DNA of 64,000 bases from the NCBI GenBank assembly GCA_027346125.1, contig DAIEST010000174.1:1167-65166 (forward strand). Reading direction: 5' to 3'. This document shows, in pieces, positions 1,919 to 63,558 of the stretch. The notes under the pieces are model-generated. The model searched no databases. It was given only the letters and a program-made list of their open reading frames with translations, and was not told where the DNA came from. The first letter of the stretch is position 1. The number at the start of each line of letters is the position of its first letter. Origin of the DNA: Leptospirillum sp. (GTDB lineage: Bacteria > Nitrospirota > Leptospirillia > Leptospirillales > Leptospirillaceae). The position numbers and the translations under genes are program-made.

Positions 1919-2121
1919 AACAAAAGCGACAGAAGAACGCTCAGGAGGAGACCTGTCATAAGAGGGAAATAGAATCTGAACCCCGGACGCTCCACGACGA
2001 TATCCCCGGGAAGATGCCCCAGAACAGAAAAAATCCCCCGCCCCGCTCCCTTCTCCACGAAAAAGAATATCCCTGCCAACAGAAAACAGACGATCCCCAG
2101 AACGAAAAACAGGCGCGACAT
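1885..2121 (-). CDS. Small membrane protein, DUF2905-like (78 aa)
   Basis: Internal ATG overlaps the nadA stop (TGATG). MSRLFFVLGIV...LPGDIVVERPGFRFYFPLMTGLLLSVLLSL matches the remembered DUF2905 pattern. Confidence 0.55.
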   Translation of the reverse strand: MSRLFFVLGIVCFLLAGIFFFVEKGAGRGIFSVLGHLPGDIVVERPGFRFYFPLMTGLLLSVLLSLLFYLVSRFFGKP

Positions 2122-4138: not shown

Positions 4139-4148
4139 CCTTTACTCT

Positions 4149-5255: not shown

Positions 5256-5280
5256 CCGTGCCCTTTCAAGTCGGAGTCCC

Positions 5281-24463: not shown

Positions 24464-24822
24464 GGGGGCGATCGGGTTCGACGGGGATGAGAAAGCAAGG
24501 ACAGCATGCCGAGGTCCCAGGTCCTCGTAAAACCTTTGGGAAAAAGACAACTGCCAACGAAGAGCTGGCTCTCGCTGCTTAATCTAAACAATTAAGTGAG
24601 CGCGCCTGTCGGATTTTGCGCCTGCCCGGATCCGAAGGCGTGGAGAAGGCAGGATCGCCGAAGGAACATGTCTGGGTTCCTGAAGCTAAACCCTTACAGA
24701 CTCGCTGGTGACAGGTATGCCTCTCTTTCCTGTCATTGGTCAGACTTAAACAGAGGCTAAGCATGTAGCGGTTCTTGGCGGACTGTTTCCGGACGCGGGT
24801 TCAATTCCCGCCGCCTCCACCA
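24464..24822 (+). ncRNA. ssrA: tmRNA (transfer-messenger RNA)
   Basis: 5' GGGGGCG pairs with 3' CGCCTCC-ACCA, including the G3:U alanine identity pair. T-arm GCGGGTTCAATTCCCGC. Internal tag ORF GCC AAC GAA GAG CTG GCT CTC GCT GCT TAA (24553-24582) encodes ANEELALAA. Confidence 0.93.
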
Positions 24823-26004: not shown

Positions 26005-26177
26005 CGTTCGTATGCCTCCAGGTTGATCAGGATATGATTGTCCGGGGCCTTCTCAAAATGGACGCCCTTGAGCCAAACTCCGGTCTGGATCTTACCACGG
26101 ACCCCGGCCGGAGTGTACCCGGTCAATGCGCAGAATTTCTCGATGAGGACCCATCGGGTCGAGACAAGGGCAATCAT
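25917..26177 (-). CDS. xis: Excisionase-like small DNA-binding protein
   Basis: 86 aa, immediately upstream of int and overlapping it. W.L.EKF...TGYT...VRGKI..G.W winged-helix-like pattern. Confidence 0.55.
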   Translation of the reverse strand: MIALVSTRWVLIEKFCALTGYTPAGVRGKIQTGVWLKGVHFEKAPDNHILINLEAYERWVEGAEFEFAATGSRSASTGMANASRKH

Positions 26178-26181
26178 CCTT

Positions 26182-26883
26182 TTAAACCTTTCCCCTCACC
26201 GAAGACTCGACGACCACCCGGCAACCGGGAACGGAGAATGCTTCCTTGAGCGCCCTGGCCATTCCGTTCAGCGCCGTCTGGTTGACTTCCAGAAGCCCGA
26301 TCGGGGCCCGTCCCTGCGCGACAGCCTGGACGAGCTGGGGCAAGCTCACCACCTCGGCTTTATAGATTTTTGTGACGGAGAGCCCTTCCACTTTCGGGGC
26401 CTGCGTTTCGATCTTTGGAATCACCACCACGGGGGGAGCAATGGGAGCTTCCAGGATCGCGGCCGCCATCTCGGAATTTCCTTCCTGAGAAAGGCGCTCA
26501 GCTTCTTCGAGACGCCGGTCTTCCTCTTCCTTCCGGGCCTGCTCTTCGGCCGCTTTCCGGAGCCGGTCTTCTTCCGCCTTGCGTTTCCTCTCCTCTTCGG
26601 CGTGAAAATCCCCGATCTTCCGGTCGATGATCTTCTGGGCCTGCTCAACCGGTTCCATGACTTTCTTTTTCTGGGCCACGGCTTCCTTGTGAGCATCAAA
26701 CGCTTTCCGGCAGATCGGATCGAAGGTGTTGTCAATCTCCTTCTTGATGGTTCGAAGGGTGAGTGTGAATTCAGCCGCTTCTTTGAAGGTATCCGTATCC
26801 GTGATCTGGATCCGGTCTGCCTTTGCGGGCAGAGAAAGGGCCTTTTCTTCGACTTCCACGATTTCCGCCGTTGGTGTTGTCAT
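26182..26883 (-). CDS. Phage hypothetical protein with a charged coiled-coil centre
   Basis: ORF 26182..26928 trimmed to the ATG at 26883, which overlaps the upstream stop (ATGA). The central region is E/K/R-rich. Confidence 0.55.
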   Translation of the reverse strand: MTTPTAEIVEVEEKALSLPAKADRIQITDTDTFKEAAEFTLTLRTIKKEIDNTFDPICRKAFDAHKEAVAQKKKVMEPVEQAQKIIDRKIGDFHAEEERKRKAEEDRLRKAAEEQARKEEEDRRLEEAERLSQEGNSEMAAAILEAPIAPPVVVIPKIETQAPKVEGLSVTKIYKAEVVSLPQLVQAVAQGRAPIGLLEVNQTALNGMARALKEAFSVPGCRVVVESSVRGKV

Positions 26884-27455
26884 TTCATCTCCTTTTTGAG
26901 TTGATAGACCTTTAGGACTGAGAGCCACGTCGCCGAATCATCGATGCTCCGGTAGACTTCCACGGAATATTTCCCGTCCTTCTTAAGATGCACTCCCCAG
27001 CACTCCCAGGCCGGGATGTTGAGTTCGTACTTGACCATGAGCGCATAGGCCGCCAACTGGAGCCTATGCCAAGGCTGCGGGGGGCCGCTCTTGATGTCCA
27101 GGAGCAATGCATTGATCTTGTGGGTCTTCCCGATCCGGTCGACCGTTCCCGCGTACCCCTGCCTCGAATACAAGGACTGCTCGATATGGGAGGGGATGAA
27201 CCCCGTTTCCTCCCGGAATTTTTTCCAGGCCTCCAGATACCCAAGAAGCTCTCCCGGGATGGTATCGTCCTCCATCCCGGTTTCGTCCCAGAACTGTGTC
27301 GCTCCATGAACGAGGGTCCCCCGCTCCGCATGTTCCGGCGTGAAGAAGGACGTATCGATCAGCCCGACTTCTTTCAGGATCTGGGTCACGCTCGGGATGA
27401 TTTCTTCTCCCACCTGGTAGGTATGGGTTTCTGGCTCGAAGGTGAGGTCCTTCAT
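26880..27455 (-). CDS. PD-(D/E)XK-family nuclease (recombination exonuclease candidate)
   Basis: 191 aa. THTY..., GT.VH, and GTVDRIG...LLLDIKSG (D-x-K core). Translationally coupled to the upstream annealing-protein gene. Confidence 0.65.
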   Translation of the reverse strand: MKDLTFEPETHTYQVGEEIIPSVTQILKEVGLIDTSFFTPEHAERGTLVHGATQFWDETGMEDDTIPGELLGYLEAWKKFREETGFIPSHIEQSLYSRQGYAGTVDRIGKTHKINALLLDIKSGPPQPWHRLQLAAYALMVKYELNIPAWECWGVHLKKDGKYSVEVYRSIDDSATWLSVLKVYQLKKEMK

Positions 27456-28315
27456 ACCTCACCGTTCTCCTGAGCATCCCCGCGCCCTTCGATCCAGGCG
27501 ATGAATTCCTCGTACTGATCCTTGCGGAGCTTGTTCGAGGATTCGATGCCGAGTTCCGAAAGATGAGCCTTGATTTCGTCATTGGAGACGCCGTTTTCCC
27601 GTGCGATGGCAAAGAGCCTCTTGCGCTGCGGGTCCGAGATGTACTGATCATCGGGGGTGTGAAACGCGCCCTGATCTGGCTTTGCCCCGCTATCCTTCGC
27701 AGGACTGGCCGATCCATTGGTCTTTCCGTGGTTTCCAAGCGTCTCCGGGTCCATGTCCTCGATGTCCTGGGTGAAGATATCGCTGGCCGCCAGACACGTC
27801 AGTGTGGCATCGACCAGGGCTCTCTTCTTCGCCATCTTGAGGATGGTGTTGGCCTGGTCAGCCGGGTTCGTCCGGACCTGCTTGATCTTGTCCACCTTCC
27901 CGTATTTCTTCGAAAACTTTGTGCGTCGCTGGTCGACGGGAGTTGCCTCAAATTCCTCATCGCAGACCGCCGCTCTCCATTTGTATTTCTCCTCAAGGGA
28001 AGAACACTCCCCCACGCCGGATCCGACAAACCGTCCGTCGAAGGTATTGAGCTTGACCTTGACCCGGTATCCGATCGCGTCCTGCAGGAAGAGGGGTTCA
28101 ACCTCGACCTCCGGGGCCAGACGGAAGGTCATCATCAGCTTTTCCGCGCCGGCCTTGAGCAGGGTCGGCTTGTCACCGGCTCCCGGGATCTTCCCGAAAT
28201 GCTGTCCTTCCTGCATGACGGTCTTCATTACTTCCTGGATCCGGTTGACCTGGGCCCGGATATCGACCGCTGTCATCGGTGGTGCTGATCCTTGGACTTC
28301 GATTTCGGTACTCAT
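27452..28315 (-). CDS. Single-strand annealing protein (ERF/RecT/Rad52 superfamily; family unresolved)
   Basis: ORF 27452..28528 trimmed to ATG 28315, 6 nt after AAGGAG. ...GDKPTLLKAGAEKL... and ILKMAKKRALVDATLTCLAASDIFTQD resemble conserved SSAP blocks, and the gene is paired with a nuclease. Confidence 0.55.
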   Translation of the reverse strand: MSTEIEVQGSAPPMTAVDIRAQVNRIQEVMKTVMQEGQHFGKIPGAGDKPTLLKAGAEKLMMTFRLAPEVEVEPLFLQDAIGYRVKVKLNTFDGRFVGSGVGECSSLEEKYKWRAAVCDEEFEATPVDQRRTKFSKKYGKVDKIKQVRTNPADQANTILKMAKKRALVDATLTCLAASDIFTQDIEDMDPETLGNHGKTNGSASPAKDSGAKPDQGAFHTPDDQYISDPQRKRLFAIARENGVSNDEIKAHLSELGIESSNKLRKDQYEEFIAWIEGRGDAQENGEV

Positions 28316-28512
28316 GCGGATTCTCCTTTTCGGTAAATGGCTGGCCTCGTTTCGATGTCGCACGGACGGCAACACCCCATTTTCTGGATGAAGCTCCTTT
28401 CGTCGAAAGGACGCTGTTCGTTGCAGCCGGGACAGCGGGGTTGCCGGTATTTCATCGTGATAATTCCTTCCTTTCGAAAAGCGTCCACGTCCACATATTC
28501 TGCAAGACTCAT
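28312..28512 (-). CDS. Small zinc-ribbon protein
   Basis: 66 aa. CPGC...CCRPC cysteine pairs, with a 4-nt overlap onto the downstream gene. Confidence 0.45.
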   Translation of the reverse strand: MSLAEYVDVDAFRKEGIITMKYRQPRCPGCNEQRPFDERSFIQKMGCCRPCDIETRPAIYRKGESA

Positions 28513-28748
28513 TGTTTGACTCCTTCAAAAGTCAGGTGGGCAAGCCAAGCGGCGTCCAGCATCAGAAGGACAGCCGCGAGCAGGATGACGAACACTGCGA
28601 GCGCGAGAAAGGCAATCATCGGGACGGGAAATTCCACCGGACGCACTCTCTCCATTTCACACGTGAGACAAAGGCCAGATTCGGAGCGCGGTGCGCAGCA
28701 AGAGGGGCACACCCACACTTCGGTCCCGGGATCTTCAAATTTCTCCAT
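28509..28748 (-). CDS. Small zinc-ribbon plus transmembrane protein
   Basis: ORF trimmed to the ATG at 28748. CPSCC...CLTC followed by a hydrophobic helix MIAFLALAVFVILLAAVLLML. Confidence 0.45.
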   Translation of the reverse strand: MEKFEDPGTEVWVCPSCCAPRSESGLCLTCEMERVRPVEFPVPMIAFLALAVFVILLAAVLLMLDAAWLAHLTFEGVKQ

Positions 28749-28756
28749 CGTCAACA

Positions 28757-28870
28757 CCTGTCCCACTTCGCCAGGAGCGCGATGAACAGCAGAATCAAAA
28801 GGCCCCTCAGAATCCGATTGGCAATCCGTTCGCTGTATAACCAGTTCAGGAAACGATGAATGCGATTCAT
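28757..28870 (-). CDS. 37-aa single-pass membrane micro-protein (below the ORF-track cutoff)
   Basis: ATG at 28870 overlaps the upstream stop (ATGA). My translation is MNRIHRFLNWLYSERIANRILRGLLILLFIALLAKWDRC. Confidence 0.3.
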
Positions 28871-29088
28871 GGAAGCCTCCGGCTCACGAGTGTCAGAAGT
28901 CCATGAGCCGCAAGAACGTGCTCCCGGATCTGCGGATCGTCGGAAGCGATGAATTGCACTTTCGCCGCTCCCAAGTGGGCGAGAGCCTCTTTGATAAGGT
29001 CTTCCGAAGGTACAGACGGCAGTTCGTTTGCCGGTTCCAAAACCAGAAAAGGGTGAGGGCTCATTGTTTCCCTCCCTCCTGGGCGCAC
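28867..29088 (-). CDS. Hypothetical protein
   Basis: 73-aa ORF in the leftward early operon. Confidence 0.4.
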   Translation of the reverse strand: MRPGGRETMSPHPFLVLEPANELPSVPSEDLIKEALAHLGAAKVQFIASDDPQIREHVLAAHGLLTLVSRRLP

Positions 29089-29285
29089 AAACGGGTCAGA
29101 AGGGAGGCTTCAAGCGTCACCTTGTCCAGTTCTCCCTTCAGTTTTGCCGAGATGTATTTCCGGATGGCGGATGCGGGCATTCCGGTGTGTTCGGACACTT
29201 CCTCCAGGGTCTCCTTGAATTGCTTCTTCAGCTCGTTGAGTTCCGAGAGTTCTGTCATGAGCTGGTGTTCGTGCTCGGGTTTCAT
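29061..29285 (-). CDS. Hypothetical protein (first gene of the leftward early operon)
   Basis: 74-aa acidic helical ORF, with a GGAGAAAAAA-type SD upstream. Confidence 0.45.
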   Translation of the reverse strand: MKPEHEHQLMTELSELNELKKQFKETLEEVSEHTGMPASAIRKYISAKLKGELDKVTLEASLLTRLCAQEGGKQ

Positions 29286-29528
29286 TTTTTCTCCTTGAGT
29301 GGATTCCCCTCCCGTCTGGGCCTCCCAGATGCCAATTGGAGTAGAGAGTTCTCCGCATGGCCATGAGGAGCGAGAGGTCTCCCCACGGGAGACCCGGAGA
29401 GGAGGGGAAACATAATTGCCGGATAAAATCCGCTAGAAATAAGTGACCGGGTTATTCCTCACCGCCCGCGGACCCTGTACCATTCCGCGATTCAAGGGCT
29501 CCTCGAGGGAGCGGTTGGAACTGGGAGA

Positions 29529-29571
29529 AATATAGCAAATTGCTATTAACAAATCAATAGCAAATTAATAT
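29529..29571 (-). promoter_or_regulatory. PL-like promoter with OL-like operators
   Basis: The minus strand reads TTGATT (29557-29552), 17 nt, TATATT (29534-29529). A perfect 15-bp palindrome ATAGCAAATTGCTAT (29532-29546) overlaps the -10 and spacer. A half-conserved copy ATAGCAAATTAATAT (29557-29571) abuts the -35. Confidence 0.55.
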
Positions 29572-29672
29572 ATTGGGACAAGAGGTGGAGTGGGTAGCGG
29601 GAAGTTCCGAAAGGGAAGGTATAATCTCCGGCAAAGAATCAGTGCGGATAAAAAGCCAAAGAGGAGGAAAAC

Positions 29673-30068
29673 GTGTCTGGAATGAGACTCTTACTTGTTC
29701 CTATTTTTCTCGTACTTTTTTCAGGATGTGCCACAACGGCCAATTACAACAAATCGGTGACCGACTGGCTGGGAAAACCGGAGAAGGATCTCTTGGCAGC
29801 ATGGGGAGTGCCGACAGGAACCTTTTCGGGGAAAAAATTTCATGTGGACGAATATCTCCGGGAAGGTACCCCTACCTTTGGAGAAGCTTTTTTGGCAGGA
29901 ATGGCTTCACAAAGTCATACGACTGGCTCTTTTGATGCTCAGGGAAATTTTCAATCGACGACCCAACCGGGAGTGATTTTACACTTCTCGTGTAGAACGG
30001 ACTTCTTTGTTGATGATCAAGACGTTATCCAACGGGTCACTTTCCATGGAGAAGGATGCCATCGGTAA
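29673..30068 (+). CDS. Lipoprotein (moron-type)
   Basis: 131 aa, GTG start after GGAGGA. Signal peptide MRLLLVPIFLVLFSGC with a lipobox-like FSGC. Confidence 0.6.
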   Translation: MSGMRLLLVPIFLVLFSGCATTANYNKSVTDWLGKPEKDLLAAWGVPTGTFSGKKFHVDEYLREGTPTFGEAFLAGMASQSHTTGSFDAQGNFQSTTQPGVILHFSCRTDFFVDDQDVIQRVTFHGEGCHR

Positions 30069-30161
30069 TTGGCACCAGAATTTGTGCATAGACGAAAGTT
30101 TAAAGGGAAATGAGGACAAGGGGGAGGGGAAAATGATTCAAAATGATTTGTAAAATTATAA

Positions 30162-30234
30162 TCCAGGATAGTTGACAAAAATATCCTGGGTATTTATTAT
30201 TTGAATTATTATCGACAAATAAATATTCCAGGAT
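30162..30234 (+). promoter_or_regulatory. Strong sigma70-type promoter with flanking inverted repeat (operator) for the DGQHR gene
   Basis: TTGACA (30172-30177), 17 nt, TATTAT (30195-30200). CCAGGATA (30163-30170) and TATCCTGG (30182-30189) form a perfect 8-bp inverted repeat bracketing the -35. A third TCCAGGAT copy lies at 30227-30234. Confidence 0.55.
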
Positions 30235-30258
30235 TAAAAATTAAATGGAGGATGTAAA

Positions 30259-31722
30259 ATGGACGACTTTGAAGAAAGACTACCAAGACCTTTGACGGGG
30301 CTCAGCAACCTGGATGATTTGATGGGAGATGGAGACACTTCAGGGAAGCCTTTTAAAGTATTTATTGGTCATAACTTAGGAAATAGAATTTTTGTTTTTA
30401 CCATTCCAATGTATGAGTTTTTTAGCCTGTCTGAGGTTGCAAATGAAAGGGGGGATGATGATGACGATAGCCTGGTTGCCCAGAGACCGTTGGATGAAAA
30501 TCATGCTCATAGTTTAGCTGTTTATATATTGAAAGGTTTAGTTTCTTCTGCCATTCAATGGAAGGAAAGAGGAAAAAAGCCAAAACTTTCTATCTTAGAA
30601 ACCTTCAGAGACCGCCTAGGGAAACAATCTTACCTTTCCCTTCAACCGATTGTAGTCAACATCCGAGATTGTGGACCCGAAGGAAGAAGCATTGTAGGTG
30701 AAAGAATGGTTGTTAATGGGGTTGAAACGGCTGCGTATAAGATCATTCTTCAGCAGAAAGATATTCTCTGGGTAGTTGATGGACAGCACCGAAGGTATGG
30801 GATGCAAAAAGTGTTTGAGTTTTTGGACGAAGTTACGCGTAGTAGAAAATATCCCAAAAAAAAGAGCCTTTATCCACATCTTGGAGAAATTGAACTGACC
30901 TCGGAGGAAATTCAAGGATGGCAGGTGTGCATGGAAGTGGCGCGGTCGTTTTGTACTGTAACTATTGAGGGCCACCTTGGTCTTGGGATCGAGGAAGAAA
31001 GACAGTTATTCTATGATCTCAATAGTCTGGGCAAAAAGGTTCAAGCAGCTTTAGCGCTTCAATTTGATAGTTCCAATCCGGTTAATCAATACATTAAAGA
31101 AGTATTGATTGATGATGGCGACATAGGTTTAGAAATAATCGACAAAGACAAGATCGACTGGGATGATGATAAGGGAGAGATGACGAGGAAGGATCTTGTC
31201 GCAATTAATGCCATTCTTTTTTTAAACAAAACCAATATTCGACAGGCAAAACCCCTAGAAGTTGAGGAAAAAGAAGAGATAGCAACAAGGTTTTGGAAGA
31301 CCATCATCCAGATTCCAGGATTTGGGAAGTCAGGGGCTAAAGCTACTACTGTCGCTGGTCAACCTGTGGTTCTCAAAGCTTTGGCCAAGTTGACATATCA
31401 GTTTGGCTTTTCTCGATCCGCTGATCCAGAAATACTTGAGAAATTCCTGAATGAAATTCTCACGATTGATTTCTCTCACTCCAACCCCATGTGGAGATAC
31501 TACGATCTGACTGAATCTGAGCGACAGCAGTTTAACCTTTCAAACCTGAGCAGCTATCTGCCTTCTGAGACGGAAGGAGCCAACAGGGATCTTGGAAAGT
31601 ATGATAAAAATGCAGGTGTGATGAGATTTGGAGCGAAACACAATGATATCTCTCCAATTATTGGAGACATGATCCGCTGGAAGCTTGGGTTACCGAACAG
31701 AAACGAAGAAAAAGAATCTTAA
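30259..31722 (+). CDS. DGQHR-domain protein (DndB/DpdB-like, ParB/Srx fold)
   Basis: 487 aa. QRPLDENHAHSLAVYI followed by ILWVVDGQHRRYGMQ (the DGQHR motif). GGAGG SD 8 nt upstream. Confidence 0.82.
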   Translation: MDDFEERLPRPLTGLSNLDDLMGDGDTSGKPFKVFIGHNLGNRIFVFTIPMYEFFSLSEVANERGDDDDDSLVAQRPLDENHAHSLAVYILKGLVSSAIQWKERGKKPKLSILETFRDRLGKQSYLSLQPIVVNIRDCGPEGRSIVGERMVVNGVETAAYKIILQQKDILWVVDGQHRRYGMQKVFEFLDEVTRSRKYPKKKSLYPHLGEIELTSEEIQGWQVCMEVARSFCTVTIEGHLGLGIEEERQLFYDLNSLGKKVQAALALQFDSSNPVNQYIKEVLIDDGDIGLEIIDKDKIDWDDDKGEMTRKDLVAINAILFLNKTNIRQAKPLEVEEKEEIATRFWKTIIQIPGFGKSGAKATTVAGQPVVLKALAKLTYQFGFSRSADPEILEKFLNEILTIDFSHSNPMWRYYDLTESERQQFNLSNLSSYLPSETEGANRDLGKYDKNAGVMRFGAKHNDISPIIGDMIRWKLGLPNRNEEKES

Positions 31723-31753
31723 AACTTTCCTTAAAAACGTTAGAAAAATGTGG

Positions 31754-31789
31754 CACGCATCGGGTTTTAAATCCCGGTGCGTGTTTTTT
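31754..31789. terminator. Shared hairpin terminator between convergent genes
   Basis: CACGCATCGGG-ttttaaat-CCCGGTGCGTG (11-bp stem with one G:U), then TTTTTT on the plus strand. There is a weaker T-run on the minus strand. Confidence 0.65.
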
Positions 31790-31798
31790 AGTGATACT

Positions 31799-32512
31799 TT
31801 AAACATTAACAGGCATCTCATCCCATGTTCGGCCGAGAAGTAATCTCCCCGTCTTCTTCTTTTGAACTCCTCCCCATTGCTTGAAGAAAAATGGAACTCT
31901 GGATTCCTGGCATTGCTCTAAGATTTCGAGAACCCACTCTTCTTTCATGGGTCTCGAGCCAGGCCCGGATTCTCCTCCAACAATCACCCAATCAATATCG
32001 CTGAGGTCAAGGTTTGGAATCGGCCCCAAAAGGGGTTCAATCGACAGGAACTTGATCTTAGCCCTCGTTTTGCGAAGGTCATTCACCCTGGAAAGATAAT
32101 CCCTATTTTCGATACTTACACCCATCCAAATGTTTTCGGTCCAGTTGAGTTCTGAGCTTATTGTGGCAAGCCTATCGGCCCTCTTTGTCAGAATCTGGAA
32201 GGTGTGCCAGTGGGCCTGATTCATTATTTGAAAAGTGTTCTTTATGAATTCGTCAGGGATTTCTTGAAGAAAGAGATCGCTCATAGAATTCACGAAAACG
32301 ACTTGAGGTTTTTTCCAAGAAAGGGGAAGGGTAAGGGAATCAGGGTGAAGGGTCGGAGCGAAACCATTACGATATTTGGCAACACCCATTTCCTTAAGAC
32401 GTGCGGCCATTCTTTCAGCATAGCAGTTTTTGCATCCTGGACTGATCTTGGTGCATCCAGTAACGGGGTTCCAGGTAGAGTTTGTCCATTCGATAGCAGA
32501 ATCAGTAGACAT
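31799..32512 (-). CDS. DUF5131 / phage Gp37-Gp68 family three-Cys-motif protein
   Basis: 237 aa. [27 protein letters not shown] (C-x6-C-x2-C), ...FVNSMSDLF..., ...IVGGESG...[15 protein letters not shown] upstream. Confidence 0.85.
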
Positions 32513-32530
32513 GACATCTCCTCCTAGAAG

Positions 32531-33622
32531 TCAACAGAAATCGACCAAAGTATTTTCCGAAAACGAATTTTTTCTTCGCGTTTTTCCGTCCGATGTGGTC
32601 GGTCTCACAAAAATTTTATTCTCCTCTTCGGCTATCTTCAAGGCTTTGATCATATGCTTTCGAAGAAAAATTGTCTCATCTTCCACATATTGTTGAATGG
32701 TTCTAGAAGGGACACAAGTACATCCACCAAATTTTTGTAAGATATCGGATTGCAGACTTCTGATCTTTTGTTCAAGGTCGAAATCTCGAAAGATCGACTG
32801 TTTTCTATGGGAAGCATCGGAAAAAGAAAAGTCTCCATTTTCGTCGATTCTCCACATGGCCTCTTTCATCTTTATGTGACCTAATCTGTGGTTGCTGGCA
32901 AAAAAAAGAAAAAATTGTGTACGATCTTGTTTGTTTTTCATCTCAAAAGGAAGAACAAATTTGGCTACACCTCTTAAACGGTCTTCATACATATTTCTCA
33001 AAGAAATTACTCGATTTTCAGAATGAATGATCGAATGAGTATCGTCAGATCCCAATAATGCATAAATATGAGAACGAATTCCATCTTCGGGATGTTCAAG
33101 CCATCGATTGATGGAGTCAACCATGAAGTTAATGAAAACTTCACATCTTTCAAAAGAAAGGAGTCTTTGAATGAGGCTGAAAGGAACATCCTTGAATCCG
33201 AAAGGGTCTATAAAGGCAAATATAGGGGACGGTGTGAAACTATTTCTTTCGAGATAATCCAAAATTGAAGATAGAATATTGGCAAAGCTTTCATTTTTGA
33301 TCGATATTTCAAAGGAGGGCGGAAATTTTAATTCAGCGATCTCATTCTTGAGATATTGGAATCTTTCTTTATTTTCTTCGACGAATTGGAATAAAATTTT
33401 CGACGAGATACCGGATTTAATTGCGATATCCAGTGCAATCAAGGGAGAGCCGGGTTCGCCATGGAGATATCTTCCAGGCCCCCCAAATCCATCAATAAAC
33501 CCAACCTTCAGGTTGTTCCTTCCTAAGATCTGAAACCAGGCCTTCAGGTATTCAGAGAGAATGGCATGTTTTGCTTTGGTGTGAGGCTCTATCTCCCATA
33601 AAGGAGGGGAAGGAGTGGGCAT
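32531..33622 (-). CDS. tcmP: Three-Cys-motif partner protein TcmP-like
   Basis: ORF 32531..33667 trimmed to ATG 33622, 6 nt after AAGGAG. LWEIEPHTKAKHAILSEYLKAW and FIDGFGGPGRY. The stop is 18 nt before the DUF5131 start. Confidence 0.78.
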   Translation of the reverse strand: MPTPSPPLWEIEPHTKAKHAILSEYLKAWFQILGRNNLKVGFIDGFGGPGRYLHGEPGSPLIALDIAIKSGISSKILFQFVEENKERFQYLKNEIAELKFPPSFEISIKNESFANILSSILDYLERNSFTPSPIFAFIDPFGFKDVPFSLIQRLLSFERCEVFINFMVDSINRWLEHPEDGIRSHIYALLGSDDTHSIIHSENRVISLRNMYEDRLRGVAKFVLPFEMKNKQDRTQFFLFFASNHRLGHIKMKEAMWRIDENGDFSFSDASHRKQSIFRDFDLEQKIRSLQSDILQKFGGCTCVPSRTIQQYVEDETIFLRKHMIKALKIAEEENKIFVRPTTSDGKTRRKNSFSENTLVDFC

Positions 33623-33673
33623 AGAGAACTCCTTTCGATGGATTGATTCCATACCAAAATCGATCATGGATTT

Positions 33674-33772
33674 TCATGCGATCCAAACCAGTGCTGCATG
33701 TTCGAAGCCCGCTTGTTCAAGTCCCAAAGGCTGCCCACCGGCTCCCGTACAGATTTCAAGTGAAGAGAACAT
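33674..33772 (-). pseudogene. 5' remnant of a DNA (cytosine-5) methyltransferase gene
   Basis: MFSSLEICTGAGGQPLGLEQAGFEHAALV matches C5-MTase motif I (F-x-G-x-G-G ... GLEQAGF). The frame stops after 32 codons with no continuation in other frames. Confidence 0.5.
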
Positions 33773-33818
33773 TGTTTCTTCAGTATTAAAAATATAATAA
33801 ATATTATTAATTAAGACA

Positions 33819-34475
33819 TTAAAATCCGTAAGGGGCAGCGTATATCCGAATACCAATTGCAGATTGATATTCGTTCCGTATATTTATAAATGGAATCTTT
33901 TGAAGACTTTGATTGTAAGGCCATGGGTCTCTAATGAAAAGGTACTCAATATAAGGTATCCCCCCCTTCATCTTATAAACGGCGTTATAAACGGCGCCAG
34001 TAATCACTACTGCATGTCCTATCGTTGAGTTTGCCGGTTTCAATCCCAAGATAACAGGAACATTATTTTGTAAATCAATAAGAACTTGGCGCCAGGATGG
34101 CTCTTGATATGAATGGATTAAGATCGGTTTTCTATCATTGTTCCACCGCCATTTATTTAGAACAAATGCTATTTGGTTTGGAAAGCCAGGCAAATTTGCT
34201 AGGGTTCCAAATGTTTCGTAGACAATCTGAGATTGTTTAATAGGGATATGTAAAAGATTTAAGGAAACTTGAATAGAAGCTGCCCAACACCAATTCGATT
34301 CGAGTTGGCGTCCAAGATCAGATGGATGAGCCCAATAATTTACATAATCAGAAGTGAAACCAACAAAATATTCATTGTAGCTTACAGGCTTAATGATTGC
34401 CCAAGCATTCTTTGGGAAAAAGGAAAGAGTGGAGAAAAGGAGAATTATAAGAAGGGTCCGAATAACTTGTTGCAT
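33819..34475 (-). CDS. Secreted papain-like cysteine peptidase
   Basis: 218 aa. Signal peptide ending AWA. Catalytic-type Cys in SNWCWAASIQ and His in IGHAVVITG, followed by IRDPWP. Confidence 0.65.
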   Translation of the reverse strand: MQQVIRTLLIILLFSTLSFFPKNAWAIIKPVSYNEYFVGFTSDYVNYWAHPSDLGRQLESNWCWAASIQVSLNLLHIPIKQSQIVYETFGTLANLPGFPNQIAFVLNKWRWNNDRKPILIHSYQEPSWRQVLIDLQNNVPVILGLKPANSTIGHAVVITGAVYNAVYKMKGGIPYIEYLFIRDPWPYNQSLQKIPFINIRNEYQSAIGIRIYAAPYGF

Positions 34476-34725
34476 TAAAGCCTCCTTTTTGATGGGAACT
34501 TAACTTCAATTCCTCCCGGGTCTCAGCATCGGCTGCATCGATCCATCTGTCGCTCCGGTAGCATACCCCAGGATCCTCGCGATCCAGTATTTCCTTTAGA
34601 GGGATGGAAGCGGGTGGACCATCTCGGTGAGCTTCTCCGCAAGATCCTCCCTGGAGAACCGGTTTTGGGGCGAACGGGATCCGTCATTAGGTCGACCAAT
34701 TTCCGAAAGGAAAATTCGCTTGGGG

Positions 34726-35406
34726 TCACTTTTTCTGTTTTGGAAGAAGTGTTATGTCCCAAATATTTCTAAAAAGTCCATCAATATGTTCAAAAAGATC
34801 TGGTTTGATAGGGGCGCCCATCGGATCAAGAATGAAATGGATTCCTTCTCTACGAGCAAGCTTAGCCGCCGGAACAAAATCGCTATCCCCAGAGATCAGA
34901 ATAATCTGGTCGACAAGTTTTTTGAGAGTTAGAGAAGCAATATCCAGGCCGATCTTCATATCGACCCCTTTTTGGCGAAAATCCAAAACCACATCGTCTT
35001 CTGTTAGTTGATCGAATGTAATTTTATGACTGAAAAGTTCTTTCAGCTTTTGGGATTTAATAGTCCATTGAGGGTTTTCTCCATCAAGCGATCCTCGTCT
35101 GATGGCAAGATTAACGCTATTCAAGAGATGTTGGTGAAATTGGGTGCGAAAAATGTAAAGTTCACTTTTTGAAAGATCTATGGATTGCTTGTTAATGGGG
35201 TTATGAAATTTTTTATTGAGGGGAGGGCAATCGTAATAAAGAATTCGATAGATATCTTTAGGATTTTCGTGATTGACATATTTGGTAAGCAGAGAGTCGC
35301 ATCCTCGGACTAAAATAGAGGCTGTCTGCTCGGGGGTAAGAGGACCACAGATTTTCCGGATTCTTTTAAGGAAGAATGCCCCATCCACAAGAATTGCGGC
35401 GCGCAT
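34726..35406 (-). CDS. NYN-domain (LabA-like PIN-fold) nuclease
   Basis: 226 aa from the ATG at 35406 (GGAG 7 nt upstream). AAILVDGAFF, QKGVDMKIGLDI and ILISGDSDFVPAAKLAR are NYN hallmarks. Confidence 0.78.
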   Translation of the reverse strand: MRAAILVDGAFFLKRIRKICGPLTPEQTASILVRGCDSLLTKYVNHENPKDIYRILYYDCPPLNKKFHNPINKQSIDLSKSELYIFRTQFHQHLLNSVNLAIRRGSLDGENPQWTIKSQKLKELFSHKITFDQLTEDDVVLDFRQKGVDMKIGLDIASLTLKKLVDQIILISGDSDFVPAAKLARREGIHFILDPMGAPIKPDLFEHIDGLFRNIWDITLLPKQKK

Positions 35407-35426
35407 CACAAATCTCCGGACATAAT

Positions 35427-35483
35427 AAAAAAACCTCCGGTTTCGGCCTCTCCCGGATGTTGGGAGAACTTACTAACGGAGGT
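35427..35483 (-). terminator. Possible terminator/attenuator in the NYN leader
   Basis: The minus strand reads ACCTCCG...(inner CTCCC-aacatcc-GGGAG hairpin)...CGGAGGT followed by TTTTTTT, ending about 20 nt before the NYN start. Confidence 0.3.
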
Positions 35484-35647
35484 GAATGGAATTAGGGTAT
35501 CTCGATTGATGGAAGTTGTCAAGGTTCCTCCTCCTCATGGTTCCAGTCTTTCGTTCTACCAGTTTGGCGGCTTAGAATTCTCCGTTATGGTGGGGTGCGT
35601 CTTCTAGTTTAGTCACTAAGAAAAACGTGCTCCGCTTTTACCCTTTT

Positions 35648-35887
35648 TTACTTTCCTACTTTTTCTTGATCCACCCAATGATCAATCTCTTTTTTGATCT
35701 CGTCATCATAAAAGCCGTTCTCAATATTTGATTTCACAGCAATGCCGGCAGAAAGACGGTCATTGACCAGGAGCAGACAGGATTCGAAAATACGACAAAA
35801 CGTGTAGCTATTCATGGTCATCGGTTTGATGCCGGACAATTCAAGAACAGAATTGAGACGATTTAACAAAGTAACAATGATTTCCAA
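35648..35887 (-). CDS. Hypothetical protein
   Basis: 79-aa ORF in AT-rich DNA, on the same strand as cI. Confidence 0.4.
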   Translation of the reverse strand: MEIIVTLLNRLNSVLELSGIKPMTMNSYTFCRIFESCLLLVNDRLSAGIAVKSNIENGFYDDEIKKEIDHWVDQEKVGK

Positions 35888-35943
35888 TGGCCCCCCTTAT
35901 TTCGCGCTTTGGTGAGGAGGAATTTCGATTTTCCCCCACGCTG

Positions 35944-36249
35944 CTATTGCTTCAGCCTCGGGTCGTCCGATGCGATGCAAAGGGCATCCATACTTCGGAC
36001 CGTCTCAGTGGTAGCCAATTTTTTTGCACCCGGAGACAATCTTGGTGAGTGTTCCTCTCTTTGGTTAAATTCGACGTTTTTTTCTCCTTGATTCTCACAC
36101 TCTTTGGCAGTATCGCCGCTCCCTACCTGGCTCCATTGGGCTATTGGGGTCTTAGTGAAAGTGAGAATATCGCTTGCAGGGGGCTCCATCAAATACCATC
36201 CGCATAAAAGTATTCCCGAGAAAATTTCAAGAAATCTTCTTTTCGACAT
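35944..36249 (-). CDS. Small exported or membrane-anchored protein
   Basis: 101 aa. N-terminal hydrophobic segment FLEIFSGILLCGWYLM, immediately downstream of cI. Confidence 0.45.
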   Translation of the reverse strand: MSKRRFLEIFSGILLCGWYLMEPPASDILTFTKTPIAQWSQVGSGDTAKECENQGEKNVEFNQREEHSPRLSPGAKKLATTETVRSMDALCIASDDPRLKQ

Positions 36250-36308
36250 TCATTTCACCTCCCTCCCCACCCAACGCACTGTTCCACAGATAGTGAAATT
36301 TTTAGTCA

Positions 36309-37034
36309 CTAAACCTCCCCTTCTCTCTGAACAACTTTCCCCACGATATTCAGATGTGCTGCTTCCTCCGGTGAATAGTATTCGTCCGGGTAACTAGCCT
36401 TATCGGGGTTGTCGGAAGAAATCTTTATTCTTCCGTCTGCCGTCCGGTGGACCCTCTTGGCCCGGAGGCCTTCGCCCGGGAAAAGTAGCACATACACTTT
36501 CCCGGACTGGAATTCCTTGTCGGCCATATTCACCAGAAGCACATCTCCGTCGCCGATCTTGGGTTCCATGGAATGCCCCGAGGCCTCGACGACGCAGAGA
36601 TCTTCCTCGCGCCAGCCGTTCTTTTTGATCCAGTCTTTCCGGAATGCATGGGTCTTGGAGATCTCGACGTGATCTCCGTTGTGATATCCACCTCCGGCCG
36701 AGATCTTGGCCTCGTACCGGGGGATGAAGGCGTATTTTTCGGTGGGGAAGGGGTTCTCTCCATGGATTTCCAAGGTGGGAGTCTTTGAATCACTCTTCGA
36801 AGCATCGGCTGGGTTGAATTGGATTTGAGGAAAATCCATCCATCCATTTTCTAGAGAAAAAGCCTCTTCAATTTTCCTTGCTGTTTTGTATCCCATCGGC
36901 CTTCTTCGCGAGACCAACTGATACATATATGCAGGGGAAACACCTACTCTTCTCCCCATTTCGGCTTGGCTATTACCACACCGTGTTTCAAGTAATTGCA
37001 TTAAGTTAGAATATCTTGTCTCCTTGATGTCCAT
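36309..37034 (-). CDS. cI: CI-like repressor (XRE HTH plus S24 LexA-like autopeptidase)
   Basis: ORF 36309..37169 trimmed to the ATG at 37034, because the longer form would overlap cro and the promoters. HTH NSQAEMGRRVGVSPAYMYQLVS. C-terminal SGHSMEP (Ser) and ...LRAKRV (Lys) of the S24 peptidase fold. Confidence 0.85.
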   Translation of the reverse strand: MDIKETRYSNLMQLLETRCGNSQAEMGRRVGVSPAYMYQLVSRRRPMGYKTARKIEEAFSLENGWMDFPQIQFNPADASKSDSKTPTLEIHGENPFPTEKYAFIPRYEAKISAGGGYHNGDHVEISKTHAFRKDWIKKNGWREEDLCVVEASGHSMEPKIGDGDVLLVNMADKEFQSGKVYVLLFPGEGLRAKRVHRTADGRIKISSDNPDKASYPDEYYSPEEAAHLNIVGKVVQREGEV

Positions 37035-37044
37035 CGGGGAATCG

Positions 37045-37112
37045 TAGCATCTTGCTAAATTTCTTGCATCTTCCTTTTTGCTATTGAAAACATAATAGCG
37101 TTTTGCTATATT
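37045..37112 (+). promoter_or_regulatory. OR-like operators and PR-like promoter
   Basis: TAGCAtctTGCTA (37045-37057) and TAGCGtttTGCTA (37096-37108). PR is TTGAAA (37084-37089), 17 nt, TATATT (37107-37112). 22 of 29 positions match the PL module by hand alignment. Confidence 0.55.
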
Positions 37113-37119
37113 CCCCTCC

Positions 37120-37338
37120 ATGAAACTCATAGAATACCTCCGAAAATTTGGGTCAAAAGAACTCGCCATAAAAGTAGGGACTTCTCGTGCCTACCTTTCT
37201 CAAATTGCCCATGCGCACCGTCAGGCTGGTCCTCAAATGGCACTCCGAATAGAAGAAGCCTCAGATGGATTGGTAACCGTATCCGAATTGCGACCAGATC
37301 TCTCTGCTCTTTTTGAGTCCGAGAAATCCGCCTCATGA
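37120..37338 (+). CDS. cro: Cro/YdaS-like HTH regulator
   Basis: 72 aa, divergent from cI. LAIKVGTSRAYLSQIAH......ALRIEEASDGLVTVSELRPDL matches the Cro/YdaS pattern. Confidence 0.75.
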   Translation: MKLIEYLRKFGSKELAIKVGTSRAYLSQIAHAHRQAGPQMALRIEEASDGLVTVSELRPDLSALFESEKSAS

Positions 37339-37407
37339 CCACGCTAAAGGGGTGTAGCAGGGAAGAAAAGGAAAAAGAGTTCGGGGGAATTTCAGGAGGA
37401 GGGAAAA

Positions 37408-37596
37408 ATGCTTGATTTTCAGAGCCATCAACAATCGTTCGAGGATTATGTGCTTTCCGTGGTGGGGAATTGCTTAGTCGAGGGAGTGAGAGGGGACATA
37501 GACGATCTGAAGGGCCTCGCGTCAGAAGTGACGGAAGCCCTTCTGGAGAGCCGGAAGATCCTTAATGCTTCGAGGGATTCTGATACATCTCGATGA
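37408..37596 (+). CDS. Hypothetical protein
   Basis: 62-aa ORF with a GGAGGAGGG SD. Confidence 0.4.
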   Translation: MLDFQSHQQSFEDYVLSVVGNCLVEGVRGDIDDLKGLASEVTEALLESRKILNASRDSDTSR

Positions 37597-37747
37597 GGCC
37601 CGAATAAAGACCGGCCACAAATTGTGATACGGCCTCTCCATCCTGCCTTCCCCCGATTGGTGAAATCTGGGAGAAGAGACCGGCGCGGATGATTTCGTGA
37701 AGAGTGTCGTGAGCAAGTTTTTGGATTGTTCCAGTGGTTTCATTCAC
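37562..37747 (-). CDS. Hypothetical small protein on the opposite strand of the early-right operon
   Basis: GTG 37747 lies 6 nt after a perfect AAGGAGG. The 61 aa (VNETTGTIQKLAHDTLHEIIRAGLF...) look protein-like. The 3' end overlaps ORF 37408..37596 by 35 nt. Confidence 0.35.
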   Translation of the reverse strand: MNETTGTIQKLAHDTLHEIIRAGLFSQISPIGGRQDGEAVSQFVAGLYSGLIEMYQNPSKH

Positions 37748-37772
37748 GAAGGACCTCCTTGATAAGGGGTAA

Positions 37773-38000
37773 GTGTTGGAAAACAGCCAAAACCAATCTA
37801 CCACAACCATGGAAGGTCCTTCGCCAATGAAAAACCCGGAGCCGATCGAAAACAGGGTGGGAGGGTGGCAGAAACCAACTCTCTCCATGAGAGACCTCCT
37901 GCAAGAATTCCGAGCCAAGGAAGGGGAAAGAGAAAGAGAAGATTTTGTGATCGAACTCATTACGGCCCTTATCGTAGCGAACTATCGGAAAACTTCATGA
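37773..38000 (+). CDS. Hypothetical protein
   Basis: 75-aa ORF with an ATGA overlap onto the next gene. Confidence 0.4.
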   Translation: MLENSQNQSTTTMEGPSPMKNPEPIENRVGGWQKPTLSMRDLLQEFRAKEGEREREDFVIELITALIVANYRKTS

Positions 38001-38236
38001 CCTCCGACCCGCTCTACCAAAAGAACCTGGAGCTGATCGAGGACCGCCTGGTCCAGTACGGCCCAAGGAAGAACCTTGCCCGCGAAGTCGGTGTCTCGGA
38101 CAGCCAATTGTCGAAGCTCCTGAACGGGGATCTCCGGCAATACGCCCGGATTCTCGCTGCGCTCAAACTCGAAATCGCCCCCCAGGAATATCTCAAGGCC
38201 CTCAAAACCATCGTGCAGAAGGAGATCCGGCCATGA
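37997..38236 (+). CDS. Small HTH protein (CII-like position)
   Basis: ORF 37865..38236 trimmed to ATG 37997. LAREVGVSDSQLSKLLNG is an HTH-like segment. Confidence 0.45.
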   Translation: MTSDPLYQKNLELIEDRLVQYGPRKNLAREVGVSDSQLSKLLNGDLRQYARILAALKLEIAPQEYLKALKTIVQKEIRP

Positions 38237-38655
38237 TCCGTATTTTCGTCCCTGGACAGCCGGTCGCAAAAGGTCGACCCCGCTTCACCAAAGCAGGTCA
38301 TTGTTTTACGCCAAAGAAAACTTCCGATTACGAAGGCAAGATGGCTCTTTTCGGGAGTCAGGCCATGACCGGAAAGCCTCCCCTCGAATCCCCCCTCCAC
38401 GTCGACCTGCTGATTATCCTTCCGATTCCTTCTTCCTGGTCCCGACGCAAGAAATCCGAGGCTTTGGGCTGCAGGCTTCTGCCGGCAGGCAGAAAGGACC
38501 TCGACAACTTCGTGAAGACGCTCGACGGGCTGAACGGAATCGTCTGGAAGGATGACGGCCAGATCTGCTCGCTCAACGCCCGGAAGGTCTACGGGGAGAT
38601 CCCGGGGCTTCATATCGTCATTCAGGAAATGGATTCATGCCAGGCAGCCGGGTGA
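38233..38655 (+). CDS. rusA: RusA-family Holliday junction resolvase
   Basis: 140 aa. VPGQPVAKGRPRF and RKDLDNFVKTLDGLNGIVWKDDGQI match the RusA catalytic Asp blocks. Confidence 0.85.
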   Translation: MIRIFVPGQPVAKGRPRFTKAGHCFTPKKTSDYEGKMALFGSQAMTGKPPLESPLHVDLLIILPIPSSWSRRKKSEALGCRLLPAGRKDLDNFVKTLDGLNGIVWKDDGQICSLNARKVYGEIPGLHIVIQEMDSCQAAG

Positions 38656-38743
38656 TGCCCGTACAGCGTCCGATGCAAAAGCCTTTCCGTGACTCTCGCA
38701 CGGAAGGGGCCCGGCTTCTTTTCTCACGAGAGGAGATTCAGAA

Positions 38744-39553
38744 ATGAGAGCACGGAACCTTAAGCCCGGATTTTTCAAGAACGAGGATCTTGCGGAATTG
38801 CCCTTTGAAGGTCGACTCCTTTTTGCCGGATTATGGTGTCTTGCAGACAGGGAAGGACGCCTCGAGGACCGTCCCAAGCGGATCAAGGCTGAGATTTTCG
38901 CATTTGACTCGGTGGACGTGGATAAACTCTTGTCCCAGCTTGCGTCTTTCGGATTCATCCTCAGGTATGAAGTCCAGGGTTCAAGGTTCATCGAAATACC
39001 TTCCTTCCTCCTCCATCAGAATCCTCATTGGAAGGAAAACCCCAGTATCATCCCCCCTTCATTGACCCAAAAACCCAAGGCTTCGCATTCATTCATAGAT
39101 GATGAAACCCAGGGTTTTAGGTCCGATGATAGACCAAAAAACCCTGGACAAGCCCAAGGCAAGTCTAGGGTTTCACCTTCTATGAATGAGGGTAAAACCG
39201 GGCTGAATCCCCATTCTCTGAATCCTGAATCCAGTAATACCCCCCCTACCCCCCTACCCCAATCCGTCGATCAACCGGGGAAGAATCCGGCGCAACAGTA
39301 CGCGCCTGAGTTCGAGGCCTTTTGGAGGGAATATCCGCGAAAGATCGGGAAAGGGGCAGCCTACAAATCGTGGGGAAAGCTCAAGCCTCCGCTCAGGGAC
39401 TGTCTCTTGGCGCTCAAATGGCAGAAGAAATCGGACCAGTGGACGAAAGATCAAGGCCGGTTCATCCCTCATCCGGCCACTTGGCTCAATCAGCGCCGGT
39501 GGGAAGATGAAAAACCCATAGACCCGCTCGATGCCTGGGCGATGGAGGGGTAA
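38744..39553 (+). CDS. Putative phage replication initiation/organiser protein
   Basis: 269 aa. LKPGFFKNEDLAEL...RLLFAGLWCLADREGRLEDRP and C-terminal FEAFWREYPRKIGKGAAYKSW...HPATWLNQRRWEDE, as remembered from phage replication-module proteins. Confidence 0.5.
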   Translation: MRARNLKPGFFKNEDLAELPFEGRLLFAGLWCLADREGRLEDRPKRIKAEIFAFDSVDVDKLLSQLASFGFILRYEVQGSRFIEIPSFLLHQNPHWKENPSIIPPSLTQKPKASHSFIDDETQGFRSDDRPKNPGQAQGKSRVSPSMNEGKTGLNPHSLNPESSNTPPTPLPQSVDQPGKNPAQQYAPEFEAFWREYPRKIGKGAAYKSWGKLKPPLRDCLLALKWQKKSDQWTKDQGRFIPHPATWLNQRRWEDEKPIDPLDAWAMEG

Positions 39554-40048
39554 ATGACAAAGCTGGAATTCAAACAACAACTCGACCGGCTCTCGCTCGC
39601 CTTCGAAAAGAAAATGTCCACAGACTTGATGGACCTCTGGTGGGAAGAATGCCGAACTTTTCCGCTCGAATCTGTCCGTAAGGCAGCCCAGCACTTTCTA
39701 GAATCGGACCAGAAGACTTTCCCTCGCATCGGCGAGTTCAAGACGGCTCTTCGCGGGGCCAGCGAACGCCGGACACCGGAAGGAACGCAAACCCTCCCCT
39801 TCTCGTGTCCCCGTTGCTCCCACGGCTTCTGCTCCGTCAAACGGTTTTCAGGGGATCGCAAGCATTCCTTCGCCTTCCGTTGCTCATGTCCGGCAGGTGA
39901 TGGCTATCCCGGCTTGCCTCTCGTTCCCTCCGACGAACGAACCCTCAAAGAATCCCAGGAGCGGCCCAATTACCCGGTTCCCTCTCCTCCAGAGCAACGG
40001 AGGATCACGCAGGAATTCTTCGACACCCTCGAGGAAATCCCTTTCTAA
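39554..40048 (+). CDS. Hypothetical protein with a Cys-rich centre
   Basis: 164 aa. CPRCSHGFC...CSCPAG. It abuts the upstream gene. Confidence 0.45.
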   Translation: MTKLEFKQQLDRLSLAFEKKMSTDLMDLWWEECRTFPLESVRKAAQHFLESDQKTFPRIGEFKTALRGASERRTPEGTQTLPFSCPRCSHGFCSVKRFSGDRKHSFAFRCSCPAGDGYPGLPLVPSDERTLKESQERPNYPVPSPPEQRRITQEFFDTLEEIPF

Positions 40049-63527: not shown

Positions 63528-63558
63528 GCGGGTTCAATTCCCGCCGCCTCCACCATTT
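63528..63558 (+). repeat. attR core (31 bp; displaced original 3' end of ssrA)
   Basis: Identical to 24795-24825. Confidence 0.88.

Follow-up and report, generated by a model that had tools for sequence, protein, structure and literature searches.

In phage lambda, the genes rexA and rexB lie downstream of the repressor gene cI and on the same strand, in a slot bounded by an operator-promoter, OL/PL, that mirrors OR, and the accessory cargo of this slot differs between related phages. Phages of enterobacteria and actinobacteria are well known to have hotspots of accessory genes next to the prophage repressor gene, and the central region of actinobacteriophages holds prophage-mediated defence genes. 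Here we describe a slot of this kind in a prophage of Leptospirillum. The window, by which we mean the whole stretch of 64,000 nucleotides that was analysed (contig DAIEST010000174.1), carries an AT-rich island at positions 29673-36249, which an earlier reading made from the sequence alone (hereafter the sequence-only reading) had assigned to a rexAB-equivalent slot between OL/PL and cI. Our analysis bore out this assignment. The slot is the positional counterpart of the lambda rexAB slot, sharing with it the place downstream of cI, the orientation on the cI strand (seven of the nine island features), the mirrored OL/PL-like boundary and the cargo that differs between relatives, and it parallels the repressor-adjacent regions of Shiga toxin (Stx) phages and actinobacteriophages. 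Compared with lambda, the slot is larger, with eight intact genes and a gene stub in 6.6 kb; one unit on the plus strand runs convergently to the rest, and there are terminator-like sites within the slot. We consider it probable that its accessory genes are exchanged horizontally and that this cargo is of defence or conversion type. No match named RexA or RexB was obtained when the open reading frames (ORFs) of the island were scanned with Pfam, NCBIfam and PADLOC, although whether these libraries hold RexA/RexB models was not checked.

The position of the slot was read from two pairs of the octamer ATAGCAAA in mirror orientation. This octamer occurs exactly four times in the 64 kb, against 0.64 copies expected, and none of 100 shuffles reached four. 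The plus strand carries it at 29532 and 29557 and the minus strand at 37077 and 37102, with a spacing of 25 bp in each pair, and the copies are enclosed by a 36-nt inverted repeat (29529-29564 / 37077-37112) that was the best of the region. We read the mirror pairs as putative operators OL and OR, which puts the island between OL/PL and cI, and the promoter-like sites at the two arrays face outwards. An S24 repressor gene and a cro-like gene are flanked by the pairs, and the module order would be OL/PL, cargo, cI, OR/PR and cro. The repressor likely starts at M46 (37034), since PHROG matches begin at residues 45-46; longer starts would extend the protein across OR. The element as a whole is a 38.7-kb lambda-like prophage that is integrated in the tmRNA gene and lies wholly inside the window. 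The final 31 nt of the tmRNA (from 24795; GCGGGTTCAATTCCCGCCGCCTCCACCATTT) recur at 63528-63558 as a direct repeat, attL/attR, and this repeat sets the prophage limits and places the integration site at the 3' end of the tmRNA. The features that frame the slot are the following.

24464-24822: tmRNA gene, with a tyrosine integrase gene directly after it
29529-29574: OL-like operator array, with ATAGCAAA at 29532 and 29557; 29532-29546 is a perfect palindrome
29557 to 29529, minus strand: PL-like promoter, overlapping the OL-like array and pointing into the leftward early genes
29546-29574, plus strand: promoter-like site, overlapping the OL-like array and pointing at the lipoprotein gene
30172-30200, plus strand: best sigma-70-like promoter match of the region (TTGACA-17-TATTAT, 11/12), upstream of the DndB-like gene
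31752-31785: hairpin with a 13-bp stem, flanked by T-runs on either strand, within the 76 nt that separate the convergent genes
35427-35482, minus strand: compound hairpin followed by T7, terminator-like, between the small ORFs and the NYN gene
36309-37034, minus strand: CI-type repressor, helix-turn-helix plus peptidase S24; the ORF itself continues to 37169
37077-37112: OR-like operator array, two minus-strand copies of ATAGCAAA 25 bp apart, between the repressor and cro-like genes
37084-37112: PR-like promoter, overlapping the OR-like array
37120-37338, plus strand: Cro-like repressor, 72 aa (phrog_35, 4.6e-13)

The sequence-only reading had called the island visibly AT-rich and its flanks GC-richer, and computed GC content and GC at third codon positions (GC3) agreed with it. 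The GC content of 29673-36249 was 0.418 (41.8%), compared with 0.557 and 0.573 in the left and right arms of the prophage and 0.542 in host DNA, and the lowest value among 886 other windows of the same length within the 64 kb was 0.501. Island genes had GC3 values of 0.32-0.48, while phage core and host genes had values of 0.57-0.76. The composition of the island is foreign, and its cargo is horizontally acquired AT-rich DNA. A two-breakpoint maximum-likelihood fit placed the edges of the low-GC block at 29530 and 37450, and the block therefore starts at the left operator and also takes in cI, OR and cro, where cI and cro (GC 0.47-0.50) are likewise lower than the flanks. It runs slightly past the right limit of 36249 that the sequence-only reading had given. 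A megablast search against 50,697 phage records gave no match for positions 26000-40000.

Variability of the slot was assessed against related prophages. Only two close relatives were found, the prophages L009 and L091, as a recT scan of the metagenome collection returned nothing closer than 61% identity. L009 is 81% identical to the window at the nucleotide level in recT and 73% in the RusA region. It carries a different repressor (219 aa) and operator-like sites of its own, of the TGTAAGC / GCTTACA type. Its slot, from the repressor gene to the left sites, holds in this order a lipoprotein gene (360 aa), an ORF of 129 aa, and genes for an endonuclease of the NotI family, a D12-class adenine methylase, TcmP and DUF5131; a second lipoprotein gene (176 aa) lies on the opposite strand. 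L091 is 77% (recT) and 81% (RusA) identical to the window at the amino-acid level and has a 36-nt OR/OL inverted repeat of its own, and the cargo that follows its S24 repressor pairs a C5 methylase with an endonuclease of type II (PADLOC REase_II, 3e-114). Both slots are AT-rich relative to GC-richer flanks. The window, L009 and L091 are three heteroimmune relatives that follow one plan, OR-cI-cargo-OL, with different cargo. The slot is a variable hotspot, a point that the sequence-only reading had proposed to check by alignment, and the set in 29673-36249 was not conserved as core in these relatives. The small ORFs and the NYN, peptidase and lipoprotein genes were absent from all other fetched loci, and the only cargo common to the window and L009 is TcmP-DUF5131, at 74.7% nucleotide identity. 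Apart from its slot genes, L091 has a second, partial C5-methylase-like ORF (985-2211, minus strand) in its rightward early region.

The same prophage was also recovered repeatedly, in many contigs from metagenomes. The exact TcmP protein was found on 24 contigs read (7 places shown), with gene order unchanged throughout; one contig (L001) was 99.99% identical to the window, and six further contigs had an identical gene order. Near-identical copies of this kind carry no information on the variability of the slot. A 3.66-kb block made of the NotI restriction-modification (R-M) genes and TcmP-DUF5131 lies at 4953-8613 in L009 and, 97.7% identical, at 8144-11804 in L008, a Leptospirillum ferriphilum contig with type IV secretion system (T4SS) genes (TrbI, DotH/IcmK). 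Finding this block both in a prophage and on a T4SS contig shows that cargo moves between kinds of mobile element, and the alignment indicates that the R-M plus TcmP-DUF5131 cassette was transferred between them recently. The cargo of the window is itself mosaic, assembled from four or more modules that were acquired independently.

Two described phage groups place homologues of the cargo in the same position. In E. coli Stx2a lambdoid prophages the order is cI, DUF3024, NYN and N, with a 39%-identical NYN gene on the cI strand, which is the rexAB position. NYN is the only gene that this slot has in common with the island; it is short, and TcmP, DUF5131, the DndB-like gene and the peptidase are missing from it. 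On the E. coli 2014C-3599 chromosome (L197, locus 3745-6649), the slot from the LexA-family repressor to N holds DUF3024 and the NYN homologue; the homologue is split into two pieces in the RefSeq annotation and forms one alignment by tblastn. Just after N in this prophage lies an Nmad5 'nucleotide modification' gene broken by an IS3 element. Genes 43-41 of Gordonia phage ThankyouJordi include a TcmP-like gene, 31% identical and annotated 'methyltransferase', which begins only 4 nt past the end of the immunity repressor gene; DUF5131 is its neighbour, and integrase and lipoprotein genes lie nearby. DUF5131 is convergent with TcmP there and co-directional with it here, and the host phylum and phage architecture differ. 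The repressor-adjacent placement of NYN and TcmP homologues in these phages supports the assignment of the Leptospirillum slot.

Every gene named by the sequence-only reading was present at the place and on the strand it had given. The cargo is as follows.

29673-30068, plus strand: putative lipoprotein, 131 aa; signal peptide ending LFSG-C, GGAGG ribosome-binding site; phrog_3716 (2e-10), function unknown
30259-31722, plus strand: solitary DndB-like/DGQHR protein, 487 aa; Pfam DndB 6.9e-31, TIGR03187 above cutoff, phrog_36010 9e-160
31799-32512, minus strand: DUF5131 (phage Gp37/Gp68 family), 237 aa; 5.8e-101, PDC-M30B 3.3e-116, PDC-M41B 6.3e-121
32531-33622, minus strand: TcmP, 363 aa from M16 of a 378-aa ORF; TIGR04474 1.3e-59, PADLOC PDC-M30A 1.4e-55
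33674-33772, minus strand: C5-cytosine methylase stub, 32 codons left, reading MFSSLEICTGAGGQPLGLEQAGFEHAALVWIA and then stop, ending just after motif I
33819-34475, minus strand: secreted papain-like (C39-like) cysteine peptidase, 218 aa; Sec signal peptide ending AWA
34726-35409, minus strand: NYN (LabA-like, PIN-related) putative ribonuclease, 226-227 aa; phrog_5783, 5e-79
35648-35887, minus strand: small ORF, 79 aa, TTG start
35944-36249, minus strand: small ORF, 101 aa, 59 nt downstream of cI; GGAGG ribosome-binding site, hydrophobic N-terminus

The TcmP and DUF5131 genes link the cargo to defence. They lie on the same strand, 18 nt apart, and both match the components of PDC-M30 strongly, in its canonical order; a difference from the candidate is that the pair here comes after a dead methylase gene and sits within the immunity module of a prophage. 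PDC-M30 is an unvalidated candidate proposed by guilt-by-embedding (PMC10855318), and a search for functional literature on DUF5131 or TcmP found none. The TcmP model (predicted local distance difference score 85, predicted template modelling score 0.82) resembled class I S-adenosylmethionine (SAM) methyltransferases over its N-terminal 270 residues: these made up almost all of the top 50 PDB matches (E 9e-7 to 3e-4; for the top matches E ~1e-6, probability 1.0). The motifs D44-G-F-x-G-P-G50 and D139-P-F-G-F143 are invariant and stand where motifs I and IV are expected, and the C-terminus is a winged helix. As judged from this model, TcmP has a class I SAM-methyltransferase fold, with catalysis predicted. 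DUF5131, which is 67-84% identical among the 119 closest matches below the query's own sequence, has three cysteines (C20-x6-C27-x2-C30) that are invariant in 32 homologues, spaced differently from the radical SAM motif CX3CX2C. Its fold, a predicted partial TIM barrel, matched TIM barrels weakly (E ~6e-3); the matches included the radical-SAM enzymes NifB and spore photoproduct lyase. DUF5131 scored 2.8e-25 against TIGR04471 (rSAM_mob_pairA, 'radical SAM mobile pair A'), under the family cutoff. Sequence and profile searches of the PDB returned no relatives of TcmP, DUF5131, the DndB-like protein or NYN.

Across independent contexts the two members of the TcmP-DUF5131 pair are always adjacent, and they often close a restriction or defence operon at its 3' end. 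These contexts included NotI R-M genes, a type I S subunit with Mrr, a methylase-Mrr fusion and type III Mod with Res, as well as PglZ/SNF2, ResIII/PDDEXK and AbiJ/AbiE neighbours. Four of the IMG/VR loci with TcmP (L279, L281, L282 and L283) add to these contexts: in three the pair comes straight after R-M genes, of type I, of type III or fused to Mrr, that share its strand, and in the fourth it comes after an HTH_3 gene and a T5orf172 nuclease gene. An obligatory methylase partner upstream of TcmP was considered and rejected, since a methylase is frequent in that position and not universal. The ratio of nonsynonymous to synonymous substitution rates (dN/dS), an approximate measure here because dS is saturated, was 0.16-0.18 for TcmP and 0.04-0.07 for DUF5131 against the L009 and L008 copies, 0.12 and 0.18 respectively between L008 and L009, and 0.16-0.22 for the backbone genes recT and RusA. 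These low values show that purifying selection has maintained the pair although the methylase in front of it is dead.

The C5-cytosine methylase stub matched PADLOC methyltransferase models (~1e-8) over 28-34 N-terminal profile positions only, with motif I among them, and no restriction endonuclease model in PADLOC matched any island ORF. The island C5 methylase gene is dead, and there is no intact type II R-M system among the island ORFs. Close kinship of the stub with the L091 methylase was rejected because the two show no likeness beyond motif I. Further along the cI strand, the putative NYN ribonuclease (PF01936, 37.4 bits against a cutoff of 24.2) has the acidic motifs ILVDG and SGDSDF in its translation. 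Temperate phages of several phyla carry homologues with 39-54% identity to it, and one sits between repressor and integrase in Streptococcus phage Javan85. The peptidase passed its family cutoff narrowly (PF13529, C39_2, 26.1 bits against 24), and residues Q57, C63, H154 and D183, a putative catalytic set, were invariant in 25 homologues. Its family is small, with 529 representatives among 1.84 billion proteins, and no phage homologues of it were found. Both small ORFs were without match to any family. The 250-nt spacer between the NYN and peptidase genes (34476-34725) is GC-richer than its surroundings and is overlapped by a 79-aa ORF (34523-34762, GC 0.525). It had no family match and no significant RNA fold: the 250-nt and a 238-nt spacer folded no better than shuffles (z = +1.28 and -0.35), and Rfam matched the tmRNA alone. 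This spacer may be the remnant of an older junction.

On the plus strand, the 487-aa protein carries the Pfam DndB domain, the DGQHR motif and the TIGR03187 domain of Dnd/Dpd proteins. Its score against the DndB equivalog was 19.9 bits, with a cutoff of 328. A scan of ten ORFs, those of the island and the repressor, turned up no other dnd or dpd domain, and precomputed Pfam annotations of the genes next to two homologues showed none. The equivalog score and the neighbours argue that this protein is not part of a Dnd/Dpd system, and, in contrast to those systems, DndACDE or Dpd partners are missing among the island genes. It belongs to a conserved 487-aa family of its own, with members 53-61% identical in many metagenomes, which is found solitary in chromosomes, between housekeeping or toxin-antitoxin genes, and in lytic phages. 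The DndB family has been assigned a ParB-type nucleoside triphosphate (NTP)-binding fold (bioRxiv 10.1101/2025.10.10.680097). Full-length homologues with ~50% identity occur in the early-gene region of ~98-kb lytic Pseudomonas phages; in phage vB_PpuM-KoPa-4 (L185, 61574-63037) and 20 further records the homologue stands among unannotated small genes. The link that this protein makes between a Leptospirillum prophage and Pseudomonas phages was unexpected. A single-protein scan of IMG/VR for the DndB-like gene found nothing. The putative lipoprotein had weak phage homologues (23-24% identity).

The genes beside the island are those of a lambda-like phage: small ORFs, a recT-like gene, an exonuclease and the integrase in the leftward early direction, and cro-like, RusA, replication initiator, terminase and portal genes in the rightward direction. 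The host SmpB was assigned to a 90%-identity cluster of Leptospirillum proteins, and Leptospirillum is also the source of the nearest named homologues of both TcmP and DUF5131. One late-region ORF (57084-58595, plus strand) weakly matched the ATP-grasp (1.4e-7) and C-terminal (3e-6) domains of phosphoribosylglycinamide synthetase, a match that is unusual for the late part of a phage genome. Large minus-strand ORFs that crude gene calling produced in the late region had no Pfam match and were set aside as probable antisense artefacts.

We infer lysogenic expression, a defence role and all of the biochemistry in the following scheme. As the operator layout would suggest, the repressor binds both mirror operator arrays and silences the PL and PR early operons. 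The cI gene and the two small ORFs, between which there is no terminator-like site, would form one transcript ending at the hairpin at 35482-35427, and NYN would be transcribed next in the same direction, by read-through or from a promoter of its own. The peptidase gene, the methylase stub, TcmP and DUF5131 would make up a unit ending at the hairpin at 31752-31785, on which the lipoprotein and DndB-like genes would converge from the other strand; this hairpin is probably a bidirectional terminator that closes both transcription units. The cI-strand cargo would be made in the lysogen, from the repressor maintenance promoter or from its own promoters, and the most likely role of the products would be to protect the lysogen or to alter it. 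At the envelope, the lipoprotein and the secreted peptidase may be active, and the NYN ribonuclease, the DndB-like NTP-binding protein and TcmP-DUF5131 on nucleic acid. The TcmP-DUF5131 pair is expected to use SAM, through the methyltransferase fold with its DNA-binding winged helix and through a three-cysteine, radical-SAM-like barrel.

Several results weigh against an exchanged slot with defence- or conversion-type cargo. The terminator-like hairpin between the cI unit and NYN makes read-through from the repressor promoter doubtful, and the overlap of the first plus-strand promoter-like site with OL means that the lipoprotein-DndB pair may be repressed in the lysogen. Promoter-like sites were not enriched in the region (16 found, 12.5 expected from shuffles). 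The two close relatives form a small sample, and the presence of TcmP-DUF5131 in both the window and L009 implies that not all of the cargo was swapped. The defence-type character that the sequence-only reading had given the cargo stood in the PDC-M30 match of TcmP and DUF5131, and it did not stand as membership of an experimentally validated defence system, to which no cargo gene belongs. Whether any one gene has an actual anti-phage effect we judge to be an even call. The remaining adverse points, that DUF5131 occurs in 181 phage records, only 7 of them (6 from Gordonia phages) with a TcmP-like gene as well, and that the DndB-like homologues of lytic Pseudomonas phages sit among early genes, fit cargo that serves the phage instead. 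TcmP-DUF5131 and the DndB-like protein would then handle or modify the DNA or RNA of the phage when it infects or is induced, in counter-defence or as accessories of replication, and the lipoprotein-DndB pair would be an early operator-controlled transcript, as its promoter-like site at 29546-29574 over the OL sites would allow. Several recT-related phage loci, in which DUF5131 lies without TcmP on the same strand downstream of recT, point the same way. However, TcmP-DUF5131 is overwhelmingly cellular (more than 1500 homologues, against 7 IMG/VR loci among 2.9 million) and lies in cellular defence islands beside R-M, BREX-like and Abi genes; the Gordonia TcmP-like gene directly follows the immunity repressor gene; the DndB-like gene is also a solitary chromosomal insert; and the minus-strand genes are oriented as cI is, not as the early operons are. 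We therefore regard a phage-serving role as unlikely.

Two further explanations deny the island a cargo function or a foreign origin. The island might be mostly decaying hitch-hiker DNA from past insertions, without function, its AT-richness marking silenced foreign DNA. The reduction of the C5 methylase to 32 codons, the 240-250-nt spacers without detectable structure or family match and the small ORFs without homologues would all be expected of such DNA. But all of the larger genes are full length with catalytic or binding motifs intact, the dN/dS values of TcmP and DUF5131 (0.04-0.18) are as low as those of phage core genes, and the prophage was recovered with its order preserved in L001, in six further contigs and, by its exact TcmP, on the 24 contigs read, so we hold wholesale decay to be quite improbable. 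Alternatively, the block could be conserved core or regulatory sequence of the phage family, its low GC reflecting function and not transfer. The lowered GC of cI and cro is in line with this, as are the presence of TcmP-DUF5131 in both the window and L009 and a dS for the pair similar to that of backbone genes. Besides TcmP-DUF5131, however, no island gene was found in L009, L091 or the other fetched loci outside L001-L007, and L009 and L091 hold R-M genes and unrelated lipoproteins instead. The conserved-core explanation is largely refuted by this comparison, and we give it hardly any weight. A bolder reading can be offered tentatively: TcmP-DUF5131 might be a self-sufficient immune or epigenetic nucleic-acid module, combining SAM and radical-SAM-type chemistry, that travels as a rule at the 3' end of R-M or BREX-like operons and under prophage repressors, and that selection has preserved in the window after the decay of its methylase partner, with the DndB-like protein as a second, single-gene system common to chromosomes, prophages and lytic phages.

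For follow-up, the TcmP-DUF5131 pair and the solitary DndB-like family are of more interest than the existence of the island. Together with the temperate-phage NYN family they are uncharacterised, widely distributed gene sets, and the island points to them in a setting that allows a role in the lysogen to be put to the test. The comparison with the T4SS-gene contig also documents a recent move of an R-M plus TcmP-DUF5131 cassette between that contig and a prophage. The locus extends the pattern of accessory genes beside the repressor to a prophage of Leptospirillum, in the Nitrospirota, with cleanly defined operators and three heteroimmune variants that can be compared.

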